Positions 3,344 through 38,594 of a stretch of 64,000 nucleotides of DNA are shown one piece after another. The notes under the pieces are model-generated. The model had not been told where the DNA came from. It ran no database searches and saw only the letters and a program-made list of their open reading frames with translations. The stretch is taken from positions 96,001 to 160,000 of IMG/VR virus record IMGVR_UViG_3300032753_000003, one strand, 5' to 3'. How positions within the stretch are numbered: position 1 is the first letter of the stretch; every line of letters starts with the position of its first letter. The DNA is from a virus. The position numbers were made by a program, and so were the translations under genes.

Positions 3344-3427
3344 TCCTGGGTGGCGGAATGGTAAACGCACCTGACTGTTAATCAGACGCCGAAAGGCTTG
3401 CAGGTTCGAGTCCTGCTCCAGGAGCCA
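3344..3427 (+). tRNA. tRNA-Asn(GUU) with long variable arm
   Basis: Loop CTGTTAA, GCC-GAAA-GGC V-arm, G73, CCA. Confidence 0.82.
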
Positions 3428-5291: not shown

Positions 5292-5379
5292 TCAGGGATA
5301 GTTTAATTGGTAAAACTCCAGACTCTGACTCTGGCAACAGATAATGCTAGTCCACGTTCGAATCGTGGTCCCTGAACCA
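5292..5379 (+). tRNA. tRNA-Gln(CUG) with long unpaired variable region
   Basis: Acceptor TCAGGGA/TCCCTGA, loop CTCTGAC, insert CAACAGATAATGCTAGT. Confidence 0.8.
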
Positions 5380-5915: not shown

Positions 5916-6067
5916 TTCGGGATGGGGAAATGGTATACCCGCCGGCGTGAAGGCTGGAGGTTGTAACAGGTACGGTGAGTTTTACCAGTAGTAAGCTGCA
6001 GACGAGGCTGGTAGCAAGAGACGTATGTCTGACAACGTTGTAGGTTCGAGTCCTACTCCCGACACCA
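5916..6067 (+). ncRNA. tRNA-like RNA (152 nt) with very large variable-arm insertion
   Basis: Acceptor TTCGGGA/TCCCGAC plus ACCA, Leu-type D-arm, canonical T-arm, 6-nt loop GTGAAG, ~80-nt branched insert. Confidence 0.65.
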
Positions 6068-10808: not shown

Positions 10809-11549
10809 ATGTACGGCGGTGTGAAGAAACAACTTTGTGGTAAATGCTACAAAGAAATATCAGTTAATAACTTCAACCGGCATTACATATCATGCCTGGC
10901 ATCTGTACCTAAAAAAATACGCGGTATCGACTTTGATCCAAATATAGGATTTAAAAATGGTACAAGGCATGCATGGAACAAAGGATTATCTAAAAATACA
11001 GATAATAGAGTTTTAAAGAACGGGCTGGCTTTAAAGGGGCATCCAAACATTGGTAAATGTGCCGATCCAGAAAAAGAAAAACAACGTATATGTAAATTAT
11101 CTGTTAATGCTAAAAAGCAAGGTTTTGGAGGATACAATAAAAATGCAGGCCATTCTAAAAAATTTAAATATCAAGATAGCTTTGGTAATATTGTAACACT
11201 ACAATCAACCTACGAATTAGATACTGCTAAACTATTAGATAGTTTAAATATTAAATGGATAAGACCATCTTATTTGACATATTATAATAAAAAGTATTAT
11301 CCAGATTTTTTATTAGTTGATTATAACATATATTTAGATCCAAAAAACTCATATCTGGCAATAAAGGATAAAGATAAAATACGACTTGCATCTGAACAGA
11401 ACAATGTTAAAATATTCATACTAGAACAGACGCAAATAAACAAAGAATATATAAACACTATATTGGCGCGTAACTCAGCGGTAGAGTGCAATCCTGATAA
11501 GATTGAAGTCGGTGGTTCAACTCCATCCGCGCCAACCAACTACATGTGA
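10809..11549 (+). CDS. Putative homing endonuclease (PD-(D/E)XK type); 3' end runs through tRNA-Ile
   Basis: N-terminal CxxC; QSTYE...IKWIRP...YYPDF...YLDPKN. Confidence 0.7.
   Translation: MYGGVKKQLCGKCYKEISVNNFNRHYISCLASVPKKIRGIDFDPNIGFKNGTRHAWNKGLSKNTDNRVLKNGLALKGHPNIGKCADPEKEKQRICKLSVNAKKQGFGGYNKNAGHSKKFKYQDSFGNIVTLQSTYELDTAKLLDSLNIKWIRPSYLTYYNKKYYPDFLLVDYNIYLDPKNSYLAIKDKDKIRLASEQNNVKIFILEQTQINKEYINTILARNSAVECNPDKIEVGGSTPSAPTNYM
11464..11538 (+). tRNA. tRNA-Ile(GAU)
   Basis: Loop CTGATAA, A73, CCA. Confidence 0.9.
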
Positions 11550-11743: not shown

Positions 11744-11828
11744 TCGGGGATAGTTTAATTGGTAAAACTTCGGACTTTGACTCCGATAACAGATAATGCT
11801 AGTGCAGGTTCGAATCCTGCTCCCCGAT
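11744..11828 (+). tRNA. tRNA-Gln(UUG), no encoded CCA, acceptor stem extended
   Basis: Loop CTTTGAC, same long V insert as the other Gln genes, flanking 11-bp inverted repeat. Confidence 0.75.
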
Positions 11829-11907
11829 CTATACTCTATTATGATTCATTGATATAATCGAACCTTCAATTATATTGTGTATAAATACATTATATTGAGG
11901 TTCAATT

Positions 11908-13458: not shown

Positions 13459-14136
13459 ATGGATTATCAAAGTCATTATAATCGCCTAATAGGACGAGCT
13501 AGAGTGCGATCATTGTCCGGTTATGGCGAAAAGCACCACATACTTCCGCGATGCATGGGAGGAGATGATAGCGACGGTAATCTGGTTACTCTTACAGCCA
13601 GAGAGCACTTTATCGCACATCTGCTTTTAGTTAAGATATATGGTAACGATTTTAGATTGATCAAAGCAGCGGCAATGATGTGTATGGGTCAAGACCAACG
13701 CAAGATGAATAACAAGCTCTACAGCAAATTTAGAGAGTTATGGCGAGCAGCTATGTCTGATAGCCAAACAGGTCAAGGTAACTCGCAATGGGGCACTAAA
13801 TGGATTTACAGCGATACTCTCAAATTATCTCGGAAAATTCCTAAAGAACAAGATATACCGAATGGATGGAATTTAGGTAGGATAGTGAACTTTGATAAGA
13901 AACCTCGGCCGTTACCAACTAAAGATAAACGACGAGATATAATAAGAGAGAAAAATACTGCGCTGGCAAGAAACCTGTACAATAGTTATGTAAATGGTAA
14001 TTTTGTATCGATAAGAGACTTTTGTAGGTTAGGAAATTATACAAAATCGCATGTATCTTTAACAAAGATGTGGAAAAAGTTTATTCCTGAATTCGCTGAT
14101 AATGTTAAACCAGGAAAAAGGTTTATTCCTAAGTAG
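13459..14136 (+). CDS. HNH homing endonuclease; overlaps 5' end of tRNA-Asn
   Basis: EKHHILPRCMGG...NLVTLTAREHFIAHLLL; TATAAATA at 13428. Confidence 0.88.
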   Translation: MDYQSHYNRLIGRARVRSLSGYGEKHHILPRCMGGDDSDGNLVTLTAREHFIAHLLLVKIYGNDFRLIKAAAMMCMGQDQRKMNNKLYSKFRELWRAAMSDSQTGQGNSQWGTKWIYSDTLKLSRKIPKEQDIPNGWNLGRIVNFDKKPRPLPTKDKRRDIIREKNTALARNLYNSYVNGNFVSIRDFCRLGNYTKSHVSLTKMWKKFIPEFADNVKPGKRFIPK

Positions 14137-14646: not shown

Positions 14647-15792
14647 ATGTCAGATAAACCATTTTGTATATGGCCTTGGTTCCATCAAACTGTCAAAACT
14701 AACGGAAATGTTACACCGTGCGTGGTATGGAATGAAGATATTGATTCAGTTAACTATGAAAATTTTATCACCAGTCAGTTTATGCAATCTCTAAGAGATT
14801 CATTTAGACAGGGTATTCCGCATGAAAAATGCAAAAGATGTGTATATCTAGATAAATTTTCAGATTTAAGTGTTAGACGGTGGGGGTTTAATGTAGCCGA
14901 TTCTATTGGTATTGGCGAGTTTGAAGCATTAGATGCTACGTCAAATTTAATAGTACAAAGCCAAGATGTCAACTTGAGTAATGTATGCAATTTAAAGTGC
15001 AGAACTTGTAACCAAACCCGTAGTACTAAATGGATGTCTGATGCAGTAGCAATGGGAGAAAAACCAGTTGGTCTATTACGATCAAATTGGTCATTGACTA
15101 CAGAACAAGCAATTAAAATCAAACGACTTAGATTTCCGGGCGGTGAGCCGCTGTTGCACCAGGACATAATATGCAATGAATTAAATAAGATTAAAAAATT
15201 TGGTACTATATCCGAGTTTGTATTGCATTTAACAACTAATATGACAATACCATTCTCAAATGAACTTGTAGAATTAATGAAAGACACAAAGCAAACATTT
15301 ATAAGCTGTAGTGTAGATGGCGTTGGTAAGATAAACAATTATATAAGGTCAGACAGCAAATGGGAAACAATTGAAAGTAATATATTCGCGCTTGAAAAAA
15401 TATGTGTTGAAAACAACAACATAATTTTTGATATCAGTACGGTATACAGTGTATTCAATTCTAACTCGTTAGATGAATTGATAAATTGGACACATAGAAA
15501 TAATTTCAAGCACGGATTAATAATATTAGATCGCCCAACTATACATGATGCGAGAAATTTACCTGTTGATTACAAGAATCTTTTAATTGACAGATACAAA
15601 GATACATTAAAAAAATTCCCAAATCATATCCAATTAATTGAATCAGTTATAACACATCTCAGTAACTCCCCGATAATAGATATTAGCAGTTGGAAAGAAC
15701 AATTTAAGAAACATAATGACTTTTTAGATTATAGACGAAATTCTAAATTAGAAGATGTAAATTTAGAATTATCTTTTATTGTAAATAATTGA
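14647..15792 (+). CDS. Radical SAM protein with N-terminal SPASM/twitch-like region
   Basis: FCIWPW; CNLKCRTC (CxxxCxxC); PGGEPLL; SVDG. Confidence 0.88.
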   Translation: MSDKPFCIWPWFHQTVKTNGNVTPCVVWNEDIDSVNYENFITSQFMQSLRDSFRQGIPHEKCKRCVYLDKFSDLSVRRWGFNVADSIGIGEFEALDATSNLIVQSQDVNLSNVCNLKCRTCNQTRSTKWMSDAVAMGEKPVGLLRSNWSLTTEQAIKIKRLRFPGGEPLLHQDIICNELNKIKKFGTISEFVLHLTTNMTIPFSNELVELMKDTKQTFISCSVDGVGKINNYIRSDSKWETIESNIFALEKICVENNNIIFDISTVYSVFNSNSLDELINWTHRNNFKHGLIILDRPTIHDARNLPVDYKNLLIDRYKDTLKKFPNHIQLIESVITHLSNSPIIDISSWKEQFKKHNDFLDYRRNSKLEDVNLELSFIVNN

Positions 15793-15815
15793 CATAATAT
15801 AATAATATTTTATAT

Positions 15816-15918
15816 GCGGGTGTAGCTCAGCGGTAGAGCGCAACCTTGCCTAAGCACATTCTGAGCAGTGTGCTTAACAAGGTTGATGTCGAGAGTTCGA
15901 TCCTCTTCGCCCGCTCCA
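15816..15918 (+). tRNA. tRNA-Gly(GCC) with 28-nt hairpin insert in the anticodon loop
   Basis: U73 and CCA; CAACC-TTGCC[15851-15878]AA-GGTTG. Confidence 0.85.
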
Positions 15919-22884: not shown

Positions 22885-23700
22885 GACGCTGAGGACAACG
22901 CAAGTTGAACTTGGTGCAGAAATTGGTTGCATGAACCAATAAGCTGGGTGACCAGTAAATTGCGGTGAAGCCTACATAACCGCGCCGTAACTTGTTACGG
23001 AAATCATGCAAGCTTGGGTTAGACTTGACTCGGTAATACCGAAAGCAAGTCCCGTCAGTAGAATGGCGGTATGCGGTAAGTTACCGCAATGGGTCCGAAA
23101 GGATAGTGTCAGAGCCAATCGGTGAGACACAATGTGGTTGGCGCCACAGCCTATTGCACGCCAGGGTAACGAGCGCAGAAGACCAACAGGTGGATGTGAG
23201 TCTGACTGTTCGCGCAGAAAGGCAAAGCATCAGTTCAAAAGTCAAAGGGATAACCGGAGACTTGAAGAACAGCTAAGTAGCCCGCAAGGTGAAAAGTATG
23301 CGGCGTGGTGTATTGGGTATGCCAAAAGCATATTCAGCAACTGAGGTAGCACGTCGTTGTTAGGTTGATAAAAAGCAAAGACTACCTCGGTTACATAGGT
23401 AAGGTATCAAATACTTGACTCGCAAGAGAATCAAGTCTAATAGACCTCGCAAGGGAATATTAGTTAGTCATGGATGTTTCATAGACGGTTAGCGCTGTCG
23501 AACTGCTCGCAAGGTAGGTGGGAAGAAAGTGGCTGAGAACTATGTAATGACACCGCGGAACGTGAGCGGTATATAAGAACGTGATACTAGTGAATACAAA
23601 TGTACCGCAAGGACATTTGTGGTCAAGAAATTAACAGATCCCGCAAGGATGCTGGTACGGTTTCTAAGGTCACTGTATAAAGCTGTAGGCTCAAGCTTTT
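22885..23700 (+). ncRNA. Large ornate ncRNA, probably GOLLD-like
   Basis: ~820 nt without a credible ORF, GC above background, at least six CGCAAG tetraloop hairpins, own promoter and terminator, tRNA-rich phage context. Confidence 0.65.
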
Positions 23701-33190: not shown

Positions 33191-35128
33191 ATGACCAATA
33201 TCTTTGACGATATCTTGCAAGAACAGAAAACCAAAAAGCGAGAAACATTTGGCTTTATAGATTGGTTGAAGCTATGCAAGAAGGATCCAAATACATATGC
33301 ATCTGCAGCAGAACGTATGTTAGCTGCAATAGGCGAACCAGAAACAGTAGATACCAGTAAGGATCCTCGACTAAGTAGGATATTCTTAAATCGCACATTG
33401 CGAGTATATCCCGCGTTCAGCGATTTCTATGGCATGGAAGAAACTATAGAAAGAATAGTTGGATACTTCAGGCATGCTGCACAGGGTCTAGAAGAAAAGA
33501 AGCAGATCCTATATCTACTTGGTCCAGTTGGCGGCGGTAAGAGCAGCTTAGCCGAACGCCTCAAGGAACTAATCACCAAACTTCCATTCTACGTTTTAAC
33601 AGCCGAAGACGGAACTCTTAGCCCCGTGTTTGAGAGCCCGCTAGGTGTTTTTGATCCCAACAAGCATGCTGCTAGATTGCAAAAAGATTATGGTATAGAT
33701 TCTAGATATCTAACAGGTATCATGAGTCCCTGGGCAGTCAAGAGGCTTGCAGAATATGACGGCGATGTAAGTCGCTTCAAAGTCACAAAGGTTTGGCCCA
33801 GCAAGCTAGAACAAATTGGTGTTGTTAAAACTGAACCAGGCGACGATAACAACCAAGACATCAGCAGCCTAGTTGGCAAGACCAACATACGCATGCTAGA
33901 GCATTTTAGCCAAAATGATCCAGACAGTTATTCATTCTCTGGAGCACTATGCCGTGGTAATCAGGGCATTATGGAATTTGTTGAAATGTTCAAAGCACCA
34001 ATCAAAATGCTGCATCCTCTGCTAACTGCTACGCAGGAAGGCAATTATATAGGTACTGAAGCTATTTCAGCTATACCTTTTACAGGTATTGTGCTAGCAC
34101 ATAGCAACGAAGCAGAATGGCAGAGTTTCAAAAACAACAAGAACAACGAAGCATTCATTGATCGTATCTATGTTGTCAAAGTACCATACTGCCTACGCAT
34201 CACTGATGAGACCAAGATCTATGAGAAGATGCTGGAACACAGCAGCTTAGGCAATGCCAATTGCGCGCCTCAGACACTTGATATGCTCAGCAAGTTCTGC
34301 GTATTGACTAGGTTAACACCCCATGAGAACAGCAGTGCATACAGCAAGATGCGAGTCTATGACGGAGAGACCATAAAGGATGTTGATCCAAAAGCTCGTA
34401 GCATGCAGGAATATCGTGATGCTGCAGGTGTTGATGAAGGCATGAGTGGTATCAGCACTCGCTTTGCATTCAAAGTGCTCAGCAAGACATTTAACTTTGA
34501 TCCAAATGAGATAGCAGCAGATCCTGTTCATCTCATGTATGTATTAGAAGACAGCATCCGCAGAGAGCAATTCAGTACCGATACAGAAGAGAAGTACATA
34601 AACTTCATCAAAGACTATCTGTCTCCCAAGTATGCTGAATTCATCGGCAATGAAATACAAAAAGCCTATCTTGCAAGTTATTCTGAATTTGGACAATCAA
34701 CTTTTGATAGGTATATTGAATATGCTGACGCATGGATACAAGAAATAGACTATAAGGACCCAGATACAGGTAATCTCTATGATAGAGATATACTTAACAA
34801 AGAATTAGAGAAAATTGAAAAACCAGCAGGCATAGCTAATCCAAAAGATTTTAGGCACGAAGTCGTTAACTTTGTATTAAGGGCTAGAGCAAGGAACGGC
34901 GGAATTGTAGTATGGACTAGCTATGAGAAACTTCGAGATGTTATCGAGAAGAAGATGTTTGCAAGTGTAGAAGATCTACTTCCGGTAATTAGTTTTGAAA
35001 GTAAAAAAGATAGAGATGTTGAAGTAAAACATGTTGATTTTGTTAATAGAATGATTGAGCGTGGATATACAGAAAAACAGGTGCGACGATTAGTTGAATG
35101 GCACATGAGAGTACAAAAATCAAGCTAA
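33191..35128 (+). CDS. prkA: PrkA/YeaG AAA+ serine kinase
   Basis: LLGPVGGGKSS, KTEPGDDNNQDIS, FVEMFKAPIK. Confidence 0.96.
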   Translation: MTNIFDDILQEQKTKKRETFGFIDWLKLCKKDPNTYASAAERMLAAIGEPETVDTSKDPRLSRIFLNRTLRVYPAFSDFYGMEETIERIVGYFRHAAQGLEEKKQILYLLGPVGGGKSSLAERLKELITKLPFYVLTAEDGTLSPVFESPLGVFDPNKHAARLQKDYGIDSRYLTGIMSPWAVKRLAEYDGDVSRFKVTKVWPSKLEQIGVVKTEPGDDNNQDISSLVGKTNIRMLEHFSQNDPDSYSFSGALCRGNQGIMEFVEMFKAPIKMLHPLLTATQEGNYIGTEAISAIPFTGIVLAHSNEAEWQSFKNNKNNEAFIDRIYVVKVPYCLRITDETKIYEKMLEHSSLGNANCAPQTLDMLSKFCVLTRLTPHENSSAYSKMRVYDGETIKDVDPKARSMQEYRDAAGVDEGMSGISTRFAFKVLSKTFNFDPNEIAADPVHLMYVLEDSIRREQFSTDTEEKYINFIKDYLSPKYAEFIGNEIQKAYLASYSEFGQSTFDRYIEYADAWIQEIDYKDPDTGNLYDRDILNKELEKIEKPAGIANPKDFRHEVVNFVLRARARNGGIVVWTSYEKLRDVIEKKMFASVEDLLPVISFESKKDRDVEVKHVDFVNRMIERGYTEKQVRRLVEWHMRVQKSS

Positions 35129-35862
35129 TGGTGCGTACAGGTCATCTATATAAGATTACTAGGTTGTCAACCGGTGAATACTATTACGGTATTCACCGGG
35201 GTGACAAATTTGACGGATACTGAGGCAGCGGGCGTATTATTAGAAATTATATTAAAACACACGGAACAGATGATTTAATCTATGAGATCATAGCAATAGG
35301 ATCATACGATGAAATGATTAAGCTTGAGGAACAGATAGTTAATGTTGATGAAATATCAAAAGAACTATGTTGGAATTTAAAAACAGGCGGATATAGAGGT
35401 TTACCTTCCAATGAATCGAGGATGCTTATATCTAAGGCCGGATTGGGTCGTAGATATTCAAAAGATAGGACTGATAAGATACAAAAATCTAGAGCGTTGC
35501 GAATAAAAGAAATTGGTCAAAAGATATCAGAATCCAATCGAGGTCAAATTAGATCTAATGAAGCTAGAAAAAAGATATCTGATCGAAAAAAAGAGAAGAT
35601 GACTCCCGAAATAAGAAAAAGAATATCTGCAGCAAAATTAGGAACATCTAATCCAGCTTGGCTGGGATATGTGAAGACGCCAGATGGTATATTTGAGAGC
35701 TCTATGGTTGCAGCATTGTATTACGGCAAGACAGATAAGACCATACGAGATAGGATCAAAAGTATAAATCCAAAATTTAACGGTTGGATGTTTATAAAAA
35801 CACTTGATATGGTATCTAAGATAATATCTAGGTCTGATATAAGAGGAGACGTAGGTGAGTGA
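35128..35862 (+). pseudogene. Seg-like GIY-YIG/NUMOD homing endonuclease with in-frame TGA at 35221-35223
   Basis: HLYKITRL..EYYYGIH...DGY*GSG in frame with the 35314 ORF; overlaps prkA stop and yeaH start. Confidence 0.75.
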
Positions 35863-37126
35863 TTATCATATAATCGATAGACGAGAAAATCCCAAAGGCA
35901 AGAACCTTCCAAACAGGCAAAAATTCCTCAGGAAGGTTCGCGATCATCTCAAAACGCAAGTAAGAGATGCTATGGGCAAAAAGAAGATAACAGACACGGG
36001 CGGAACTGACATATCAGTACCGTCTGATGGTATCAACGAGCCTAGCTTTGATTACGACCGCAGCACTGGCGAATGGGACAGAATACTACCCGGCAACAGA
36101 GACTTTGTTGCCGGCGATCGAGTAAAAAAGCCGGATCAAAGTGGCGGCGGCGGCGGCGGAAGCAAAGCAGGCAAAGGTGGAGAAGGTGAGGATGATTTTA
36201 AATTCACTCTCACCCGCGACGAATACCTAGATATGGTGTTTGAAGATCTAGAACTACCCGATTTGGTCAAGACCAGCGAAAAGGCTGCAGTGGCTTGGCA
36301 TCGCATGCGTTCTGGATTCAAAACAGATGGCAGTCCCAGCCAACTTGATCTAGTACGCAGCCTGAAGAACAGTTTGGGTAGGAGACTGGCTCTTCGCAAA
36401 CCGATAGAAAATAAAATAGAAAATCTAGAGAAGATGTTAGAGGATGCCGATGAAGATCTATCTAACAAATTACAAGAAGAGATAGAAGGCCTCAAACGTA
36501 AAAAATCTGCGGTTCCTTGGGTAGATCCAATAGATTTACGCTATCGTAGATGGGATCAAAGACCAATACCAAACAGCCAAGCAGTGATGTTCTGCCTTAT
36601 GGACGTTAGCGGCAGTATGGGCGATAGAGAAAAAGAAATAGCCAAGAGATTTTATCTGTTGCTGTATTTGTTCCTTGAACGCCAATATGAAAAAGTACAA
36701 ATTGTGTTTGTAAGACATACAGATGTTGCTAAGGAAGTAGATGAGCAAGAATTCTTCTATGGAACAGAAAGCGGCGGAACAATTGTCAGTAGCGGATTAC
36801 AATTAGTGCATGACATTATAAATGAGAGATATCCAACTGACGCATGGAACATATATGTTGTGCAGGCATCAGACGGAGATAATTTCCCCAGTGACAACGA
36901 CGATTGTACTGAGTTAATGGGCAAGATTCTGCCTCTTGTGCAATATTATGTCTATGCAGAAGTAAAATCATATAATCCAATGTTTCAGAATTCTACCAAC
37001 CTTTGGGATATGATGGAAAGATTGGTGCGCAACTACGAGCAATTGGCGGTGGTATCAATACCATCTGTTGATAGAGTAGTGTCTATATTCAGGCAAGTGT
37101 TTGCCAAGGAGAGAACTAATGGTTGA
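35855..37126 (+). CDS. yeaH: YeaH/YhbH (DUF444, vWA) protein
   Basis: IDRR.N...NRQKF, AVMFCLMDVSGSM, QASDGDN. Confidence 0.95.
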   Translation: MSDYHIIDRRENPKGKNLPNRQKFLRKVRDHLKTQVRDAMGKKKITDTGGTDISVPSDGINEPSFDYDRSTGEWDRILPGNRDFVAGDRVKKPDQSGGGGGGSKAGKGGEGEDDFKFTLTRDEYLDMVFEDLELPDLVKTSEKAAVAWHRMRSGFKTDGSPSQLDLVRSLKNSLGRRLALRKPIENKIENLEKMLEDADEDLSNKLQEEIEGLKRKKSAVPWVDPIDLRYRRWDQRPIPNSQAVMFCLMDVSGSMGDREKEIAKRFYLLLYLFLERQYEKVQIVFVRHTDVAKEVDEQEFFYGTESGGTIVSSGLQLVHDIINERYPTDAWNIYVVQASDGDNFPSDNDDCTELMGKILPLVQYYVYAEVKSYNPMFQNSTNLWDMMERLVRNYEQLAVVSIPSVDRVVSIFRQVFAKERTNG

Positions 37127-38594
37127 ACCTTTGTTCACTAGTAACGAATGGGACTTTGATTTAATACGTCGTGCTATGGACGAATGCGGCATAATAGCTA
37201 GAGAAGAGCTGCGGCTCAACACCTATGAAAATCAAATTGAAATAGTAACTAGCGAACAAATGCTCGATGCATATGCAAGTTCAGGTTTACCTGTTATGTA
37301 TAAGCATTGGAGCTTTGGTAAGAAATTTAGCCATGAACGAGATCTATATCAAAAAGGCAAGCGAGGGTTGGCTTACGAACTGGTGTTGAATACTCAACCC
37401 ACAATCAATTACCTCATGGAAGAAAATACAGCTTGCATGCAAGTATTGGTTATAGCGCATGCTGCATACGGCCACAATCATGTATTCAAAAATAACTACA
37501 TGTTCAAACAATGGACTGATGCAGAAAGCATCGTTGACTATCTAATATTTGCAAAAAACTACATACAAAAATGCGAAGAACGTTATGGTGAAGATGTTGT
37601 GGAAGCCACACTCAATGCTGCGCATTCTCTAATGATGAACGGTATAGATCGTTACAAGAGGCCTAGAAAGCTCAGTATGGTTGAGGAACAGCTAAAACAA
37701 AAAGAACGCACAGAATATCTAGAACGCACAGTCAACGATCTGTGGAGGACTATTCCAAAAACTGAGCAAGATAAGGAAGAATATCCAAAGGGTAGATTTC
37801 CTGCAAACCCAGAAGAAAATATATTGTATTTCTTAGAGAAGAATAGCCCTGTACTAGAGACTTGGCAGCGAGAAATATTGCGTATAGTAAGAAAGTTAGC
37901 TCAATATTTCTATCCACAGTATCAGACCAAAGTACTAAACGAAGGTTGGGCTAGTTTTACGCACTATTACATAATGAATCGTTTGCATGACAAAGGGTTA
38001 CTAACAGACGGTGCTATGCTGGAGTTTTTACAGTCACATACCAGTGTGCTATTTCAACCCACATATGATAAACCCTACTACAACGGGCTAAACCCTTACT
38101 ATCTAGGATTTGAGATATTTGCAGACATACGCAGAATGTGTGAGAATCCAGACGATGAGGATAGAGAACTATTCCCACTTATTGTGGGTACAGATTGGGT
38201 AGATACTTGCCTAGATGCTGTTGCTAACTATCGCGACGAAAGTTTCATACGTCAATTCTTAGGACCAAAAGTAGTTCGCAAGATGAAATTGTTTAGATTG
38301 GTTGACGACAAACGAGAAGAAACCTATCTTATCAGTGCTATTCAAAATCGAGAAGGTTTCCGTGAAATAAGGAACAGTCTTGCCAACAGCTATGAACTTG
38401 ATGAATGGTGTCCAAAGATTGAAGTTACCGATGCTGACATAAAAGGCGATAGAACTTTGACTCTAACCTATCATAGAGAACACGGAAGGTCTATGGCAGA
38501 TAGCTGGAAGCCTGTAATGAAGCATGTTAGACACCTCTGGGGTCATAACGTCAAGCTGGTTACCAAAAGAGGTAATGTTATAGGAGAGATTTGA
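37119..38594 (+). CDS. spoVR: SpoVR/YcgB family protein
   Basis: HWSFGK, LAYELV, AHAAYGHNHVFKNN, TKVLNEGWAS. Confidence 0.95.
   Translation: MVEPLFTSNEWDFDLIRRAMDECGIIAREELRLNTYENQIEIVTSEQMLDAYASSGLPVMYKHWSFGKKFSHERDLYQKGKRGLAYELVLNTQPTINYLMEENTACMQVLVIAHAAYGHNHVFKNNYMFKQWTDAESIVDYLIFAKNYIQKCEERYGEDVVEATLNAAHSLMMNGIDRYKRPRKLSMVEEQLKQKERTEYLERTVNDLWRTIPKTEQDKEEYPKGRFPANPEENILYFLEKNSPVLETWQREILRIVRKLAQYFYPQYQTKVLNEGWASFTHYYIMNRLHDKGLLTDGAMLEFLQSHTSVLFQPTYDKPYYNGLNPYYLGFEIFADIRRMCENPDDEDRELFPLIVGTDWVDTCLDAVANYRDESFIRQFLGPKVVRKMKLFRLVDDKREETYLISAIQNREGFREIRNSLANSYELDEWCPKIEVTDADIKGDRTLTLTYHREHGRSMADSWKPVMKHVRHLWGHNVKLVTKRGNVIGEI

Follow-up and report, generated by a model that had tools for sequence, protein, structure and literature searches.

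A 28-nt hairpin insert in the sole tRNA-Gly(GCC) gene of a huge-phage contig, a probable protein-spliced mini-intron

Described tRNA introns and excised RNA hairpins

According to the textbook view, introns in bacterial tRNA genes are self-splicing ribozymes, whereas enzyme-spliced tRNA introns are found in archaea and eukaryotes. A sequence-only reading of the locus described below had likewise assigned short protein-spliced introns to archaea and eukaryotes alone, and thereby overlooked the conserved tRNA introns of Lak megaphages (PMC6784885). In these phages of about 540 kb the introns were termed 'enigmatic' and left without a proposed mechanism (Devoto et al. 2019, Nat Microbiol, PMC6784885). 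The intron in Lak tRNA-Tyr is 93 nt long, A+T-rich and composed of several helices, while that in Lak tRNA-Thr is itself tRNA-shaped (PMC6784885, Table S6). A jumbo-phage survey published in 2026 repeats the observation (PMC13037316). These two reports are the only ones that were found in the literature, and neither describes hairpin introns or a mechanism; likewise, no study of hairpin introns or of a role for RNase III with tRNA introns came up.

The insert analysed here interrupts a tRNA-Gly(GCC) gene within a window of 64,000 nucleotides, which represents bases 96001-160000 of a 199,865-bp IMG/VR virus contig (labelled G000). According to CheckV the contig is 39% complete, which implies a phage genome of roughly 500 kb. 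The phage carries at least 37 tRNA genes; within the window, default ARAGORN predicts 34 tRNA genes and Rfam yields 35 tRNA matches. The locus resembles those of the Lak phages in that a huge phage with a large tRNA set harbors an anticodon-loop insert without a ribozyme match, and in that related phages have retained one and the same intron in a given tRNA, here in six assemblies. However, in contrast to the Lak introns, the inserts described here are only 24-44 nt long and form a single plain hairpin continuing the anticodon stem, and thus differ from them in both size and shape. They also reside in different tRNAs, tRNA-Gly(GCC) and tRNA-Thr(GGU), of unrelated phages with about 40% G+C. Lak tRNA-Tyr provides a lead, since a normal CUGUAAA loop would be restored if its intron were also positioned between nucleotides 36 and 37 (36/37). 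The insert is a variant of a rarely noted, unexplained kind of tRNA intron.

Group I self-splicing introns occur in the anticodon loops of bacterial and phage tRNAs (PMC3984707), and the present phage tRNA gene likewise has its interruption in that loop. However, a hairpin of 24-28 nt leaves no room for the ribozyme core P3-P9 of group I introns, which usually exceed 200 nt. Archaeal and eukaryal tRNA introns carry a bulge-helix-bulge motif and are processed by EndA/TSEN together with RtcB or Trl1 (PMC4090602). Like these, the insert is short, non-catalytic, situated in the anticodon loop and paired with the anticodon region; the logic of an endonuclease followed by a ligase, as proposed here, is the same, and the resemblance of intron copies within one genome parallels archaeal intron transposition. 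Unlike these, it is found at 36/37 instead of 37/38, in phages of a bacterial host and without an EndA homologue. Moreover, the bulge-helix-bulge with its two 3-nt bulges, each of which bears a splice site, and the intervening 4-bp helix is missing, and the folds display an 8-bp helix, a 2x1 internal loop and a hairpin in its place.

Excision of stem-loops by RNase III is known from the intervening sequences of bacterial 23S rRNA, for example in Salmonella. In both cases an extended stem-loop is located in a loop of a structural RNA, with boundaries that are staggered and leave 3' overhangs. However, the rRNA pieces stay unjoined and the ribosome works in fragments, whereas a cut tRNA must be religated. 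In the tRNA repair system of phage T4, tRNA-Lys cut by PrrC is healed by Pnkp and sealed by Rnl1. RNA-repair ligases of the types Rnl1, Rnl2 and RtcB are encoded by jumbo phages (PMC7824862). Such ligases reseal an anticodon-loop break in a tRNA that is held together by its body, and the same ligase families are encoded in the phages described here. In contrast to T4 repair, which restores a damaged host tRNA, the break proposed here would be a programmed one, removing 28 nt from the phage's own precursor.

The interrupted tRNA-Gly(GCC) gene and its homologues

The Rfam tRNA model spans positions 15816-15915 end to end with 52.3 bits, and the extra bases constitute a single insertion in the anticodon loop (Table 1). 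The 5' exon comprises the acceptor strand, the D arm, the 5' strand of the anticodon stem and U32 U33 G34 C35 C36, while the 3' exon continues with A37 A38, the 3' strand of the anticodon stem, the variable loop, the T arm, the 3' strand of the acceptor stem, U73 and CCA. The tRNA body is of the Gly type, carrying U73, G1-C72, C2-G71 and G3-C70, which we take to be tRNA-Gly identity elements; the variable loop measures 5 nt, and the D and T loops are normal. Default ARAGORN did not find the gene, and the intron mode of the program parses it as Leu(UAA), a call that is rejected since the variable loop is short and the identity elements are those of Gly. A promoter-like site ends 10 nt 5' of the tRNA; such sites are common in this A+T-rich stretch, and it is weak evidence for a promoter.

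Table 1. Positions of the features discussed. Coordinates without prefix refer to the window.
Feature	Position	Strand	Size	Basis or description
tRNA-Gly(GCC) with insert	15816-15918	+	103 nt	Rfam tRNA model RF00005
Promoter-like site TTGTAA, 16-nt spacer, AATAAT	15779-15806	+		consensus scan, 9/12 matches
5' exon, tRNA positions 1-36	15816-15850	+		Rfam; identity to insert-free genes up to C36
Anticodon G34 C35 C36	15848-15850	+	
Putative mini-intron	15851-15878	+	28 nt	sequence, fold, insert-free genes, homologous inserts, covariation
Insert stem	15851-15860 with 15867-15876	+	10 bp	
Insert hexaloop	15861-15866	+		
Insert 3' tail	15877-15878	+	2 nt	
3' exon	15879-15918	+		Rfam; insert-free genes
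A37 A38	15879-15880	+		
Encoded CCA	15916-15918	+		
Extended anticodon/intron rod	15841-15885	+		MFE and centroid folds; same architecture in all relatives
Helix at base of rod	15841-15848 with 15878-15885	+	8 bp	positions 27-31 with 39-43, U32-A38, U33-A37, G34-last intron base
tRNA-Gly insert, L049			27 nt	
tRNA-Gly insert, L058			24 nt	
tRNA-Gly insert, G001 (= L025, L052)			39 nt	complete 543-kb phage
tRNA-Gly insert, G015 and L214			44 nt	
tRNA-Glu(UUC)-like gene of G011	L094 about 176-306 (G011:C1:40478-40599)			intron of about 46 nt
Rnl5-type RNA ligase	G000:C1:167621-168670			
RtcB ORF of G001	L065 2482-4881 (G001:C1:14481-16880)	-	799 aa	
tRNA-array ORF	13459-14136	+		homologue in G001 array
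tRNA-array ORF	10809-11549	+		homologue in G001 array
tRNA-array ORF	G000:C1:46608-47357	-		homologue in G001 array
GOLLD RNA, full-length	23300-23697	+		Rfam RF02032, 169 bits
tRNA-like gene with large extra domain	5916-6067	+	152 nt	
tRNAs with class-II-like extra arm, window	3344-3427, 5292-5379, 11744-11829			
tRNAs with class-II-like extra arm, G001 (examples)	C1:81155-81248, 98917-99008, 99623-99712, 103623-103711			
tRNA with anticodon CUA	G000:C1:46529-46604			outside the window
PrkA, DUF444 and SpoVR-like trio	33191-38594	+		

The limits of the insert are defined by insert-free genes. A 26-nt stretch ending at C36 is common to seven other viral contigs, six of which are identical to the 5' part from its first base, and in all seven GCC runs directly into AAGG. 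Since these genes match up to C36 and resume at AAGG, the insert is 28 nt long and situated at either 35/36 or 36/37. Its removal leaves a perfect UUGCCAA loop. The sequence-only reading, which had described a tRNA-Gly(GCC) with a 28-nt hairpin and the return of a TTGCCAA loop upon its deletion, is hence borne out in every detail by the sequence, by Rfam and by the insert-free genes. Its further statement that no other Gly(GCC) gene exists in the window also holds, and extends to the whole 199,865-bp contig. Neither the insert, at up to 5 mismatches, nor its arms recur in the contig, which rules out a MITE-like repeat.

Pattern scans located tRNA-Gly genes with a homologous insert at the same site in six independent assemblies, this contig included. 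Insert-free as well as covarying orthologues, which had been named beforehand as a means of checking the interpretation, were thus both found (seven viral contigs and six copies, respectively), and the homologous inserts in five other assemblies contradict the notion that the insert might be unique to this one. The complete phage genome G001 contains a second insert of 40 nt in its tRNA-Thr(GGU), about 850 bp from its tRNA-Gly, and the hairpin of this insert closely resembles the Gly intron of the same genome. While the copy in G015 can be placed at 36/37 or 37/38, placement of the Thr copy is restricted to 36/37. The single position that fits all copies, including the one described here, is therefore 36/37, one position before the canonical archaeal/eukaryal site. 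In the two tRNA species and all six tRNA-Gly copies, exons and anticodon nucleotides are intact and removal of the insert restores a perfect loop. In G001, too, the interrupted gene is the sole Gly(GCC) gene, among 67 tRNA matches in the complete genome.

Although the flanking DNA is unalignable between the copies, exons and intron stem align. The radical-SAM protein encoded next to the tRNA shows about 44-52% identity when this contig is compared with L049, and the 36 ORFs shared by this contig and G001 are 25-68% identical. In a six-sequence alignment the nine pairs of the intron stem are formed in every copy (54 of 54 cells), and compensatory changes on both sides are found in five of them. 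Sliding the register reduces pairing to 39-48%, and the pairing and covariation of the whole structure (tRNA stems and intron stem) are matched by none of 500 shuffles. The stem includes several G·U pairs; since these work solely in the sense RNA, it is the transcript that is constrained, rather than a palindrome in the DNA. Length and sequence of the loop, on the other hand, vary freely. As judged from the alignment, the insert is maintained, with covariation, as a hairpin in the sense-strand RNA.

A wider survey covered 14 records, 13 of them obtained via the ligase and one via the radical-SAM gene, and revealed two long tRNAs, in G015 and G011. With the upstream radical-SAM gene as query, one viral relative was retrieved (L066), in which the gene has no adjacent tRNA; this record is the source of the G015 copy, which is located elsewhere in it. 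G011 encodes a tRNA-Glu(UUC)-like gene whose intron of about 46 nt forms two hairpins and pairs at its 3' end with the whole anticodon in an 11-bp helix. By its modeled fold, this intron is of a different class of phage tRNA intron. Among six further large phages, five carry about 120 tRNAs, and one ambiguous tRNA-like gene of 99 nt was noted (G020). An interrupted tRNA-Gly was not found among the 120 matches listed for bacterial and archaeal genomes, which is weak evidence; the four tRNA-flagged matches listed are normal tRNA-Gly genes of Verrucomicrobiota, with an upstream match due to chance.

Glycine codons of the contig's long ORFs are predominantly GGT and GGC, which together account for 67%. 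The tRNA set of the contig is of the bacterial type. From U73 in the tRNA-Gly, the long variable arm of the tRNA-Tyr and the encoded CCA, the host is judged not to be archaeal. The Verrucomicrobiota genomes L231, L250, L271 and L331, among the matches listed, encode a tRNA-Gly(GCC) that has no insert and agrees with the phage gene in its anticodon arm and variable loop. This similarity is at most a weak hint that Verrucomicrobiota may serve as hosts.

Other tRNAs of these genomes also deviate from the norm. Class-II-like extra arms, mostly capped by a GNRA-type tetraloop, are present on tRNAs that are normally short, namely Asn and Gln in the window and Lys, Asn, Cys and Gln in G001, while Gly(UCC) and Thr tRNAs of G001 exhibit enlarged variable regions without a called stem. 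By their sequences, these genes look like the outcome of a lineage-wide remodelling of phage tRNAs. The window also contains a tRNA-like gene of 152 nt that has CCA and the acceptor, D and T arms, but combines a 6-nt 'anticodon' loop with a domain of about 75 nt at the place of the variable loop; ARAGORN interprets it as Thr(GGU) interrupted by a 73-nt intron, and it is not of the hairpin-intron type. A tRNA with the anticodon CUA, an amber suppressor, raises possible readthrough or recoding of TAG. The GOLLD RNA within the tRNA-rich region belongs to a known family of unknown function that often occurs beside phage tRNAs. Outside the tRNA genes, the window encodes a PrkA kinase, a DUF444 (YeaH-like) protein and a SpoVR-like protein, which share 44-68% identity with G001 and represent a bacterial module linked to stress and sporulation that is unusual in phages.

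Precursor fold and a possible route of excision

The tRNA precursor is predicted to fold with -43.5 kcal/mol (z = -3.6), a stability that none of 200 shuffled sequences attains. In the extended rod, the 8-bp helix is followed by a CC/A internal loop, in which C35 and C36 oppose a single A, and by the 10-bp hairpin. According to the folds, the rod is continuous with the anticodon arm and extends over about 19-20 helical steps (8 bp, internal loop, 9-10 bp), and the helix spanning both splice sites measures about two turns, as is characteristic of RNase III substrates. In all copies the anticodon triplet faces exactly two bases at the 3' end of the intron, and in all six tRNA-Gly copies the first intron base lies opposite the third-from-last (-3). 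G34 pairs with the last C of the intron in most copies, while in the G015 copy C35 and C36 pair with the terminal GG and G34 bulges; despite this change in local pairing, the three-opposite-two spacing is retained. The intron tails read AC/AA, GC/AA or GG/AA, where the slash denotes the 3' boundary. In every copy the excised piece would thus be a hairpin with a 2-nt 3' overhang. Given the boundaries that follow from the Thr copy and from the insert-free genes, two helical steps separate the splice sites and cuts there would leave 3' overhangs, which by geometry alone is a stagger of the RNase III type. However, since the six hairpins are homologous, their geometry does not amount to six independent observations and could be partly inherited rather than selected.

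The best explanation of the comparative data seems to be that the insert belongs to a family of 24-44-nt hairpin mini-introns located at 36/37 in huge bacterial phages. It is difficult to account for a conserved and covarying hairpin of this kind within the only Gly(GCC) gene of each of two huge phages unless splicing by proteins takes place in a bacterial cell. Since the gene is the only one for Gly(GCC), would serve the commonest Gly codons and yields a perfect UUGCCAA loop after removal of the insert, it is likely functional, with proteins splicing its transcript. Three options had been put forward by the sequence-only reading: a mini-intron requiring an endonuclease and a ligase, a shield against anticodon nucleases, or a decoy. 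The mini-intron is favored by the same insertion site in diverged phages, the covarying hairpin, the intact exons, the interruption of the sole gene and the presence of ligases, while the EndA-like enzyme envisaged for its removal is unsupported. On balance, and with some reserve, we lean towards the 28 nt being a protein-spliced intron of a working tRNA-Gly(GCC) that is excised by the RNase III of the host and rejoined by a ligase of the phage.

The intron is too small to self-splice, and proteins must therefore remove it from the precursor. In the route considered here, the hairpin at 36/37 would turn the anticodon arm into a substrate of RNase III, an enzyme present in nearly all bacteria. 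Host RNase III would release the hairpin, leaving a 3'-OH at C36 and a 5'-phosphate at A37, the exon halves would be held together by the tRNA body, and an ATP-dependent RNA ligase of the phage would close the anticodon loop. RNase III is favored because the two-step stagger, the 3' overhangs and the two-turn helix correspond to the geometry of its products, and an ATP-dependent ligase because the ends produced by RNase III (3'-OH and 5'-phosphate) are those that such ligases need. Derived from a modeled fold, this particular combination of enzymes is put forward tentatively, as a possibility about which considerable doubt is in order. A likely consequence would be that the phage could use the tRNA for its commonest Gly codons only if both activities are available. 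Being harmless after splicing, the intron may need no further reason to persist.

With respect to the enzymes, the search for RtcB, Rnl and EndA-like genes suggested by the earlier reading was successful for the ligases: an Rnl5-type ligase is encoded in both phages, and G001 encodes RtcB and, near G001:C1:365955-366545, Rnl1 in addition. The Rnl5-type protein of the contig, a nick-sealing RNA ligase, has the Naegleria RNA ligase 5cot as its best solved match (E 3.6e-85) and is 46% identical to the G001 copy. RtcB of G001 scores 247.6 bits, and 279.6 bits on the whole ORF; in the 200-kb contig, which covers 39% of the genome, RtcB is absent. The G001 protein carries an unannotated insert of about 360 aa between positions 50 and 49 of the RtcB model, which may be an intein; no intein or endonuclease domain scored.

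On the side of the nucleases, the EndA/Sen domain PF01974 has no match in the contig or in the complete 543-kb G001, while four archaeal controls scored, and RNase III (PF14622, PF00636) is absent from G000, G001, G011 and G015. No Rfam intron or ribozyme family matches the gene in the window, which is recognized as tRNA alone. A nuclease domain is missing from the ORFs around the RtcB gene of G001, and no candidate nuclease is situated beside the interrupted tRNAs, the neighbourhoods of which have only tRNAs in common. A Pfam scan of 20 of the 36 ORFs common to the contig and G001 revealed replication proteins, PrkA/YeaH/SpoVR, Sir2, a glycosyltransferase, DNA-ligase proteins and unknowns, and no RNA nuclease. 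The tRNA arrays contain ORFs with homologues in the G001 array, two with an HNH-like motif 'HHILP...EHF..HLLL' and one with a PD-(D/E)xK-like C-terminus, for which Pfam gave no match; from these motifs they are probably free-standing DNA homing endonucleases.

Several points argue against excision by RNase III. Without a phage-encoded RNase III, the cut would depend on the host enzyme. At internal loops RNase III often cuts only one strand, which could also apply here, and with 8-10 bp the upper stem is short. Rnl5 and Rnl2 prefer nicks in duplex RNA over open anticodon loops, and the Rnl1-type ligase was found only in G001. Moreover, the two-hairpin intron of G011 does not fit the two-step stagger, and RNase III cannot explain all phage tRNA introns.

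Alternative explanations and implications

The RtcB of G001 would fit equally well with a route via cyclic-phosphate ends, in which a spliced intron is cut by another nuclease of phage or host, either anticodon-nuclease-like or a metal-independent enzyme measuring from the tRNA body, and RtcB joins the resulting 2',3'-cyclic phosphate and 5'-OH ends. An enzyme of this kind would account for all phage tRNA introns, including those of other shapes in G011 and, with about 90 nt, in Lak phages (PMC6784885). However, the contig lacks RtcB, no candidate nuclease emerged near RtcB, near the interrupted tRNAs or among the scanned shared proteins, and a body-measuring enzyme needs neither a covarying hairpin nor the three-opposite-two spacing, which makes this route rather unlikely. 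Alternatively, the RNA might never be spliced and remain a non-decoding tRNA look-alike that might serve as a decoy for anticodon nucleases, bind glycyl-tRNA synthetase or some other protein with affinity for tRNA, or act as a regulator. The anticodon is partly buried in a helix and other unusual tRNA-like genes exist in the same genomes, both of which agree with such a role. Yet a decoy would have no need to keep U32 U33 G34 C35 C36 and A37 A38, as is the case in two tRNAs and six copies, the freely drifting loops are better suited to a spacer than to a ligand site, and the insert sits in the sole GCC gene, among 67 tRNA matches in G001, whose tRNA reads the commonest Gly codons of the phage. 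A look-alike is accordingly regarded as improbable.

The close similarity of the two G001 introns in different tRNAs suggests mobility, and with HNH-type homing-endonuclease-like ORFs in the tRNA arrays one might envisage a decaying pseudogene into which a small palindromic mobile element has inserted, or else an artefact of assembly. This reading is largely refuted and retains very little probability: the insert is present in six independent assemblies and as a single copy in the contig, the exons are fully intact, the stem shows compensatory changes despite deep divergence, and the G·U pairs of the sense strand oppose a palindrome at the DNA level. Even less probable is an intron of the archaeal/eukaryal type cut by an EndA/Sen-family endonuclease. 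Such introns are short, protein-dependent and located in the anticodon loop, and as in archaeal precursors loop bases pair with the 3' end of the intron; however, both phage genomes are devoid of PF01974, the 3-nt bulges and the 4-bp helix between them are missing, the position is 36/37 and the tRNA set is bacterial. The EndA-like endonuclease of the sequence-only reading is unsupported on the same grounds. Joint excision by RNase P and RNase Z was also considered. It would call for a mimic of the acceptor/T-arm minihelix with about 12 bp, a T loop, a discriminator and CCA, and is ruled out by a stem of 8-10 bp without T-loop motif; a cut after the discriminator would in addition leave one extra base in the loop.

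Excision by host RNase III followed by sealing through a phage ligase would represent a third, purely protein-driven route of tRNA splicing in bacteria and their phages, in which a ligase of the 'repair' type takes part; as a general route this is possible but, at present, doubtful. The 103-nt precursor with its exact boundaries offers a minimal and unambiguous substrate, and the hypothesis of two enzymes is a concrete one. If it is true, changes would be called for in tRNA gene finders that pass over such genes, as default ARAGORN did with the present one, and an explanation would be at hand for the 'enigmatic' phage tRNA introns of the 2019 report. Phage RNA ligases, which so far have been read only as repair enzymes of counter-defence, would acquire a routine job. 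Part of the ligase repertoire of large phages would then serve the regular maturation of tRNAs, and introns could spread between tRNA genes.
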